NCBI RefSeq assembly: GCF_044324875.1
Contig: NZ_CP172185.1
Direction: 5' to 3' (one strand)
DNA: 64,000 nucleotides
Source of the DNA: Escherichia coli
GTDB taxonomy: Bacteria; Pseudomonadota; Gammaproteobacteria; Enterobacterales; Enterobacteriaceae
The position numbers are program-made. Below, piece by piece: positions 28,944 through 32,039 of the stretch (its first letter is position 1; each line of letters starts with the position of its first letter).

Positions 28944-31900
28944 TAACAAAAGCAATTTTCCCGGATGTCTGTATACAAAAACGCCGCAAAGTTTGAGCGA
29001 AGTCAATAAACTCTCTACCCATTCAGGGCAATATCTCTCTTGCAGGTGAATGCAACGTCAAGCGATGGGCGTTGCGCTCCATATTGTCTTACTTCCTTTT
29101 TTGAATTACTGCATAGCACAATTGATTCGTACGACGCCGACTTTGATGAGTCGGCTTTTTTTTGCCTGTTATTTATCAGCGTCTACCCTTTAAGAGTCCA
29201 CCCAATGACCGGAGGGAAATATGACGACACTTATTTATTTGCAAATTCCTGTCCCTGAACCGATTCCTGGCGATCCTGTTCCAGTGCCCGATCCGATCCC
29301 TCGTCCGCAACCCATGCCTGACCCACCCCCCGATGAAGAACCGATTAAATTGTCGCATCGTGAGCGTAGATCTGCGAGGATACGCGCCTGCTAACTTTGC
29401 GTCGATGACCACGAGAATAGATTGTGACCGCTTTTTCTACCCTGAATATTTTGCCTCCCGCCCAACTCACGAACCTTAATGAGTTGGGTTATTTAACCAT
29501 GACGCCGGTGCAGGCCGCCGCGCTTCCGGCGATCCTTGCCGGAAAAGATGTTCGCGTGCAGGCGAAAACCGGCAGCGGCAAAACGGCGGCTTTTGGCCTC
29601 GGCTTGTTACAGCAAATTGATGCGTCGCTATTTCAAACCCAGGCTTTAGTGCTGTGTCCTACGCGTGAACTGGCGGATCAGGTGGCAGGTGAATTGCGTC
29701 GGCTGGCGCGTTTTCTGCCAAATACCAAAATTTTGACGTTGTGCGGTGGTCAACCGTTCGGTATGCAGCGTGATTCGTTGCAACATGCGCCGCATATTAT
29801 CGTGGCAACGCCGGGCCGTTTGTTGGATCATCTGCAAAAAGGCACGGTATCACTGGATGCGTTGAATACGCTGGTGATGGATGAGGCCGACCGCATGCTG
29901 GATATGGGATTTAGCGATGCCATTGATGATGTCATCCGTTTTGCGCCAGCATCTCGACAGACGCTTCTGTTTTCGGCAACCTGGCCGGAAGCCATCGCCG
30001 CAATCAGCGGACGAGTGCAACGCGATCCTTTAGCGATTGAAATTGACTCAACAGATGCTCTGCCACCTATTGAACAACAATTTTATGAGACATCCAGCAA
30101 AGGCAAAATTCCGTTGTTGCAACGGTTATTAAGTTTGCATCAGCCATCCTCTTGCGTGGTGTTTTGCAATACCAAAAAAGATTGCCAGGCTGTCTGCGAC
30201 GCGCTGAATGAAGTAGGGCAAAGTGCATTGTCGTTACACGGCGATCTGGAGCAACGTGATCGCGATCAGACCCTGGTACGTTTTGCTAACGGTAGCGCCC
30301 GTGTACTGGTTGCGACTGATGTTGCTGCGCGAGGTCTGGATATTAAATCGCTTGAGCTGGTGGTGAACTTTGAGCTGGCGTGGGATCCTGAAGTTCATGT
30401 ACATCGCATCGGTCGTACAGCGCGTGCAGGAAATAGCGGTCTGGCGATCAGTTTCTGTGCCCCGGAAGAAGCACAGCGGGCCAATATCATTTCTGGCATG
30501 TTGCAGATAAAACTTAACTGGCAAACGCCGCCAGTTAATAGTTCCATTGTGCCGCTGGAAGCCGAAATGGCAACGTTATGTATCGATGGCGGGAAAAAAG
30601 CCAAAATGCGCCCGGGTGATGTATTAGGTGCGCTGACAGGAGATATCGGGCTTGATGGCGCAGATATTGGCAAAATCGCCGTGCATCCGGCGCATGTCTA
30701 TGTCGCGGTGCGTCAGGCTGTTGCTCATAAAGCATGGAAACAGTTACAGGGCGGGAAGATTAAAGGAAAAACGTGCCGGGTGCGGTTATTAAAATAATGA
30801 AATGTTGAATCGCAGGGTGCAAGAGTCAACATCTTCTTCGGGATTGCCGGATGCGACGCTGGCCGCGTCTTCTCCGGCCTCCATAAGAGTAGCCCGATAA
30901 GCTTGCGCATCGGGCGCTATCCGGGTTATTTCACTTCAACCACATTCAGTCGTAACTCATCCAACTGATTTTCATCTTCTTCAGGCTGCCAACCCGCCGG
31001 TTGTAGAGGGATCTCTTCGCGATCAAACGCCAGATCACCCCCGTTAACCACTTCAGAACCGTGGGTAATGCCTTTGAAATCGAACAGGTTGGTATCGCAC
31101 AGATGCGACGGCACCACATTCTGCATCGCGCTGAACATCGTCTCGATACGCCCCGGATAACGTTTATCCCAGTCACGCAACATGTCAGCAATCACCTGAC
31201 GTTGCAGGTTAGGCTGTGAACCGCACAGGTTGCACGGAATAATCGGGAACGCTTTTGCATCGGCAAAGCGCTGAATATCTTTCTCGCGGCAGTAGGCCAG
31301 AGGGCGAATCACGATATGTTTGCCATCATCGCTCATCAGTTTCGGAGGCATACCTTTCATCTTGCCGCCGTAGAACATATTTAAGAACAACGTTTGCAGG
31401 ATATCGTCACGATGGTGACCCAGCGCGATCTTCGTCGCTCCCAGTTCCGTTGCGGTACGATAAAGGATACCGCGACGAAGACGAGAACACAGTGAGCAAG
31501 TGGTTTTGCCCTCCGGAATCTTCTCTTTCACGATACCGTAAGTGTTCTCTTCAACAATCTTGTACTCAACGCCCAGCTTTTCAAGATACTCGGGCAGAAC
31601 GTGTTCCGGGAAGCCCGGTTGCTTTTGATCGAGGTTAACAGCCACCAGCGAAAAATTGATTGGCGCGCTTTGCTGCAAATTGCGCAGAATTTCCAGCATG
31701 GTATAGCTATCTTTACCCCCGGAGAGGCAAACCATGATGCGATCGCCTTCTTCAATCATATTGAAGTCAGCAATGGCTTCGCCCACGTTACGACGCAGAC
31801 GTTTTTGTAATTTGTTCAGGTTGTATTGTTCTTTCTTACTAATTTCTTGATTTTGCGACATTTAAAAGCGACTCAATTCGTTATATGGCATCAGAAGAGT

Positions 31901-32039
31901 ATGCGTCATGCCGGAACGCCCAGCATAAGAAATCTGATATAAAAACTGTGGCGTGTATGGTACGGATTAGAGGGGAAAATGTCAGCACATTTGCGAAATG
32001 AATCAAAAAGCCCGCAGCAATGTGCGGGCGTTAGTGTCA

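Follow-up and report, generated by a model that had tools for sequence, protein, structure and literature searches.

Genes and features of the ttcA-uspF locus

The window analysed here is a stretch of 64,000 nucleotides from Escherichia coli (RefSeq assembly GCF_044324875.1, contig NZ_CP172185.1), in which the genes around the locus of interest follow the order dbpA-ttcA-uspF-ompN-micC-ydbK (Table 1). A first-pass annotation had described ttcA as encoding a full-length protein of 311 amino acids starting at 31861, and an intact open reading frame on the minus strand (30926-31861) bears this out. The encoded protein scores 513.6 bits over its full length against the NCBIfam TtcA equivalog NF007972 (cutoff 272) and carries the SGGKDS PP-loop motif at residues 47-52, while the product of the neighbouring gene scores 303.3 bits against the NCBIfam UspF equivalog. 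No open reading frame for an integrase, an excisionase or any other phage protein lies between ttcA and uspF, in agreement with the original statement that this interval holds no prophage. A scan for tRNA and tmRNA genes found none in the window; tRNA genes are common integration targets.

Table 1. Coordinates of genes and sequence features at the ttcA-uspF locus (window numbering).
Feature	Coordinates	Strand	Description
dbpA	29424-30797	+	
ttcA	30926-31861	-	tRNA 2-thiocytidine(32) synthetase; intact, 311-aa ORF; ancestral TtcA'/ttcC-type N-terminus
attB core for Rac-family (IntR) prophages	31812-31837		26 bp, TTGTTCAGGTTGTATTGTTCTTTCTT; ttcA codons 9-17
Predicted strand-exchange segment	31812-31826		15 bp, TTGTTCAGGTTGTAT; from Rac-SA53 and GIMC1405 junctions
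Native first eight ttcA codons	31838-31861	-	MSQNQEIS; same sequence as K-12 ttcC; K-12 TtcA has MQENQQIT
Putative IHF-consensus match	31840-31852	+	TAATTTCTTGATT against TAAnnnnTTGATW; adjoins the core; read from sequence
ttcA-uspF spacer	31862-32036		175 bp, 45% G+C; uspF terminator inside; no att sequence
Weak sigma-70-like match, lone candidate for a ttcA promoter	31957-31985	-	CTGACA-17-TACCAT, 9/12
uspF intrinsic terminator	32010-32029	-	GCCCGCA-cattgc-TGCGGGC, then TTTTTG
uspF	32037-32471	-	Universal stress protein F; full-length NCBIfam UspF equivalog; same annotation in strain 118UI and K-12
ompN	32612-33730	-	
MicC	33956-34076	+	
ydbK/nifJ	34097-37621	-	

The distance from the ttcA start to the uspF terminator had been put at about 175 bp. 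The figure is exactly right, but it is measured to the uspF stop codon; the terminator, a hairpin with a 7-bp stem (6 G-C pairs) and a 6-nt loop, lies downstream of that stop and thus inside the spacer. In K-12 the corresponding ttcC-uspF spacer is 176 bp long, differs by a single 1-bp indel in an A-run, is otherwise identical, and carries no annotation of any kind. A sigma-70 scan of the spacer found no ttcA promoter above chance level: two sites scoring 9/12 occur in 31700-32700, against 1.4 expected by chance from shuffled sequences. From the geometry of the locus, the native promoter and 5' untranslated region of ttcA are presumably located in the spacer. No Rfam family was identified there, whether the whole window was searched at gathering thresholds or 31700-32200 alone at E≤1; an STnc310 match over the uspF terminator (19 bits against a gathering threshold of 40, E = 0.4) was rejected as a chance resemblance of the kind that terminators give.

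Position of the Rac attachment site

In K-12 MG1655 the Rac prophage is annotated at 1411899-1434958, a length of 23,060 bp that matches the approximately 23 kb quoted in the first-pass annotation. Since ttcA occupies 1411013-1411948, the prophage annotation begins 50 bp inside the gene, and it ends where ttcC, a 51-bp pseudogene upstream of uspF (1434958-1435008), begins. BLAST comparison of the window with the K-12 segment (L001) returns one block on the ttcA side (window 27913-31854, L001 1-3942) and one on the ttcC-uspF side (window 31812-36837, L001 26960-32001). The two blocks are colinear with the window and overlap only at 31812-31854, and the entire prophage is absent. The 26-bp sequence TTGTTCAGGTTGTATTGTTCTTTCTT is found exactly at both K-12 Rac boundaries (L001 3900 and 26960); the window has a single copy, with no further one at up to three mismatches. 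Because this duplicated core falls within the open reading frame, the attachment site belongs to ttcA itself and lies 25-50 bp left of the interval that had been flagged (31862-32036). The first-pass annotation, which had placed a vacant Rac site in the spacer, beside the ttcA 5' end, was correct as to the vacancy but not as to the place. Likewise, the alignment of K-12 junctions that it had proposed as a way to define the attB core does yield a core, located in ttcA and not in the flagged interval. The experimental literature agrees on the position: Rac lies between ttcA and ttcC', and attL is part of the ttcA coding sequence (Liu et al. 2015, PMC4632033).

A site in the intergenic spacer, outside ttcA, would fit the gene order, as Rac in K-12 does sit between ttcA and uspF. 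Such a location is very improbable given that the core and both junctions map to 31812-31837, that the spacer matches the attR flank only and has nothing in common with attL past 31854, and that the K-12 annotation itself starts inside the gene; it is refuted by the K-12 alignment. The idea that the spacer holds a degraded prophage remnant or scar has a negligible probability. Nothing was found that would point to one apart from two short mechanical ORFs of 41 and 51 amino acids, whereas base-by-base comparison with K-12, which excludes a remnant, shows no DNA beyond the K-12 length, no match to Rac and one base of difference (the A-run indel) from the core through to the uspF stop along the attR flank; the single occurrence of the core in the window likewise argues against it.

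The junctions of related prophages narrow the site further. In the record of the inducible phage Rac-SA53 (KU052037), the same 26 bp are annotated as both attP and attB. The Rac-SA53 attL, however, follows the bacterial sequence only through TTGTTCAGGTTGTAT, after which it continues as phage sequence (ATCTCTTTCTTCG...), and its attR is bacterial from the end of those 15 bp onward. The attL of strain GIMC1405 is identical in type to that of Rac-SA53. The attP of this type differs from the bacterial sequence within the 26 bp, the parts in common being the first 15 bp and TCTTTCTT. As crossover needs shared identity, we infer from these comparisons that strand exchange must be confined to 31812-31826. 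When the surroundings of this segment were inspected by eye for inverted core-type integrase sites, none was seen; TTGTTC is repeated there in direct orientation (31812-31817 and 31826-31831). With regard to accessory factors, both K-12 junctions, attL and attR, contain a match to TAAnnnnTTGATW, the consensus for integration host factor (IHF), but an IHF peak is reported at attL alone (PMC8407004).

The window almost certainly presents an unoccupied attB for lambdoid prophages of the Rac family, which use the tyrosine integrase IntR, with a 26-bp core in the 5' end of ttcA and exchange within its first 15 bp. The sequence features expected of such a site are present: a core that is duplicated around the prophage, the dbpA-ttcA-uspF-ompN context, contiguous flanks without phage DNA and a TtcA'/ttcC-type N-terminus. 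Compared with the K-12 Rac attB, as represented by the ttcA and ttcC junctions and by the excision product, the site has the same core, the same position in codons 9-17, the same flanking genes, the same 5' coding end and the same upstream spacer. Nothing substantive differs, only the A-run indel in the spacer and a glycine in place of cysteine at TtcA residue 290. In view of this sequence identity to a proven site, the attB of the window would be expected to be able to recombine.

The 5' end of ttcA with and without a prophage

The 5' end of ttcA in the window had been described as native, and it is indeed identical to K-12 ttcC, the translation of which gives the same N-terminus as that of the window TtcA. 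It differs from the 5' end of K-12 ttcA at 7 nucleotides, all at 31838-31858. The two TtcA proteins are identical at 306 of 311 residues, and four of the five differences fall at residues 2, 3, 6 and 8. The fifth, Gly290 in the window (30992-30994) against Cys290 in K-12, is the sole difference outside the N-terminus that is exchanged with the prophage.

Since K-12 ttcA has a phage-type 5' end and K-12 ttcC is identical to the window, we infer that the phage arm supplies a substitute start and leaves the true start stranded beside uspF. On integration of a Rac-like phage, the attP arm would bring a near-copy of the ttcA start (ATG and about eight codons), so that ttcA would stay intact with four residues substituted, and the original start would remain next to uspF as the ttcC pseudogene. 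In the K-12 lysogen, 51 nt lie between the intR stop codon and the start of ttcA, and the gene is thus separated from its original upstream spacer. In the window, with no phage integrated, ttcA retains its own first eight codons, its ribosome-binding region and the 175-bp spacer upstream. This picture accords with published work, in which Rac excision alters four N-terminal residues to give TtcA', the form that is carried by rac-free E. coli and Shigella and is regarded as the ancient copy (Liu et al. 2015, PMC4632033).

The arrangement can be set beside a more familiar mode of integration. Temperate elements with an attP that duplicates the end of the target gene keep that gene intact, for example where the target is the 3' end of a tRNA gene. 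Rac-like integration would resemble this in that the arm of the phage contributes a close copy of the gene end that it displaces, and the reading frame is preserved. Unlike in tRNA genes, it is the 5' end of a protein-coding gene that is replaced, so that start codon and ribosome-binding region are exchanged, presumably together with the promoter, and four residues change.

Distribution of the empty site

The frequency of the empty state was estimated with a 170-bp query centred on the core, counting a junction as contiguous when one place in the genome covered at least 80% of the query. The query matched 5410 of 5426 complete E. coli genomes, and the junction is contiguous, hence empty, in 2488 of these 5410 (46%); a 1.8-kb query gave 2487. 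Among the matches listed, split junctions have an attR-type start at query base 61 (window 31812) and an attL-type end at query base 103 (window 31854), with one split match that starts at base 98 instead. Two split genomes that were inspected, one of them an O157:H7 strain, carry intR-xisR-ralR-recT-recE beside ttcA, and this integrase region is also present, at 96-99% identity, in five phage records. The same ttcA site was used by CP-933R and Sp10 of E. coli O157:H7 (PMC4632033); in these prophages, as in Rac-SA53, intR-xisR lies next to ttcA, the site being occupied there and empty in the window.

Two genomes (NZ_CP050036.1 and NZ_LN832404.1) have other arrangements at this locus. E. coli strain 58-3 has an IS1 between ttcA and uspF, and the K-12 substrain AG100 is locally unusual in that the junction query is split into two parts separated by about 430 bp and TtcA is annotated twice.

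A vacant site could be one that was never entered, or one from which a prophage was lost by precise IntR/XisR excision. The second history is made plausible by the excision proficiency that Rac and its relatives still have, by the fact that the TtcA' sequence of the window is exactly what excision restores in K-12 (PMC4632033), and by the occupancy of over half of the complete E. coli genomes, which implies frequent gain and loss. Because excision is precise, no sequence trace separates a cured site from a naive one. We nevertheless consider a cured site unlikely: the K-12 attR agrees, on its bacterial side, with the 5' end and spacer of the window, which show no phage-type polymorphisms, including at 31838-31858, and the closest relatives found are empty too.

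Other differences from K-12 in the window

Most of the remaining window is approximately 96-98% identical to K-12 at the DNA level. At its left end (window 1-4565) it encodes a class-III aminotransferase (50-1258), a pspF-like sigma-54 activator (1378-2370) and pspA (2522-3190), followed by ycjX at 4565. The first 4.5 kb have no match in K-12 1374000-1408000 (ycjO to ynaN), so that the window appears to lack the ycj sugar-utilisation, ompG and ycjW genes found ahead of ycjX in K-12. An intact gene for a 212-aa oxidoreductase of the SDR family (11337-11975, minus strand) stands where K-12 has only ymjC/ymjD remnants, and the IS5 that K-12 carries between ynaI and ynaJ is absent (17152-17155). 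The sRNA genes McaS (25569-25664, minus strand), FnrS (29042-29159, plus strand) and MicC are in their expected places, with scores well above the Rfam gathering thresholds. Next to uspF, ompN is a divergent allele with a product of 372 aa (377 aa in K-12) that is only 82% identical to its K-12 counterpart; several indels lie in the variable stretches that separate conserved blocks.

Further to the right, at approximately 43038-43442, the window lacks the feaR-feaB-tynA-paaZ...paaY cluster, which spans about 19 kb of K-12 between ydbL and ydbA; strain 118UI lacks it too. A tandem periodicity of 30 bp is seen at 43714-44007 (seven overlapping 114-nt copies in register), in the N-terminal part of the ydbA-type autotransporter gene. 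Two IS1 copies (47663-48431 and 54042-54810), 100% identical, in inverted orientation and 5.6 kb apart, interrupt genes: one splits the ydbA-type autotransporter into ORFs at 43442-47668 and 48509-50299, and the other interrupts ydbD. Between ydbA and pdxI there is also an insertion of approximately 1.3 kb (about 50415-51731) that encodes a 402-aa transposase of the Mutator/IS256 family and is absent from K-12 and strain 118UI. The full arrangement of three insertion sequences, searched as a 14-kb query, was found in no complete RefSeq E. coli genome, the best match covering 85%.

Implications for ttcA and its annotation

In lysogens ttcA is cut off from its spacer and begins close downstream of intR, so that it would rely on phage sequence for its expression and translation start. 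It is conceivable, and offered here tentatively, that ttcA regulation exists in two states within the species: governed by the gene's own spacer signals where the site is empty (roughly 46% of E. coli, this strain among them), and by phage-dependent expression and translation initiation where a Rac-like prophage is present (roughly 54%). The putative IHF match beside the core could, on the same tentative footing, act in native ttcA expression or in attB function. If two-state regulation were true, it would extend the published effect on the protein to transcription, without amounting to a new kind of system.

The rac-free state that the window exemplifies has already been published, and the biology is known and common. 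The finding, together with the correction that the attachment site is in ttcA and not in the spacer, is of little importance beyond annotation. For annotators, it means that the TtcA variant of this strain is the ancestral one and that Rac-like phages have a free landing site here.
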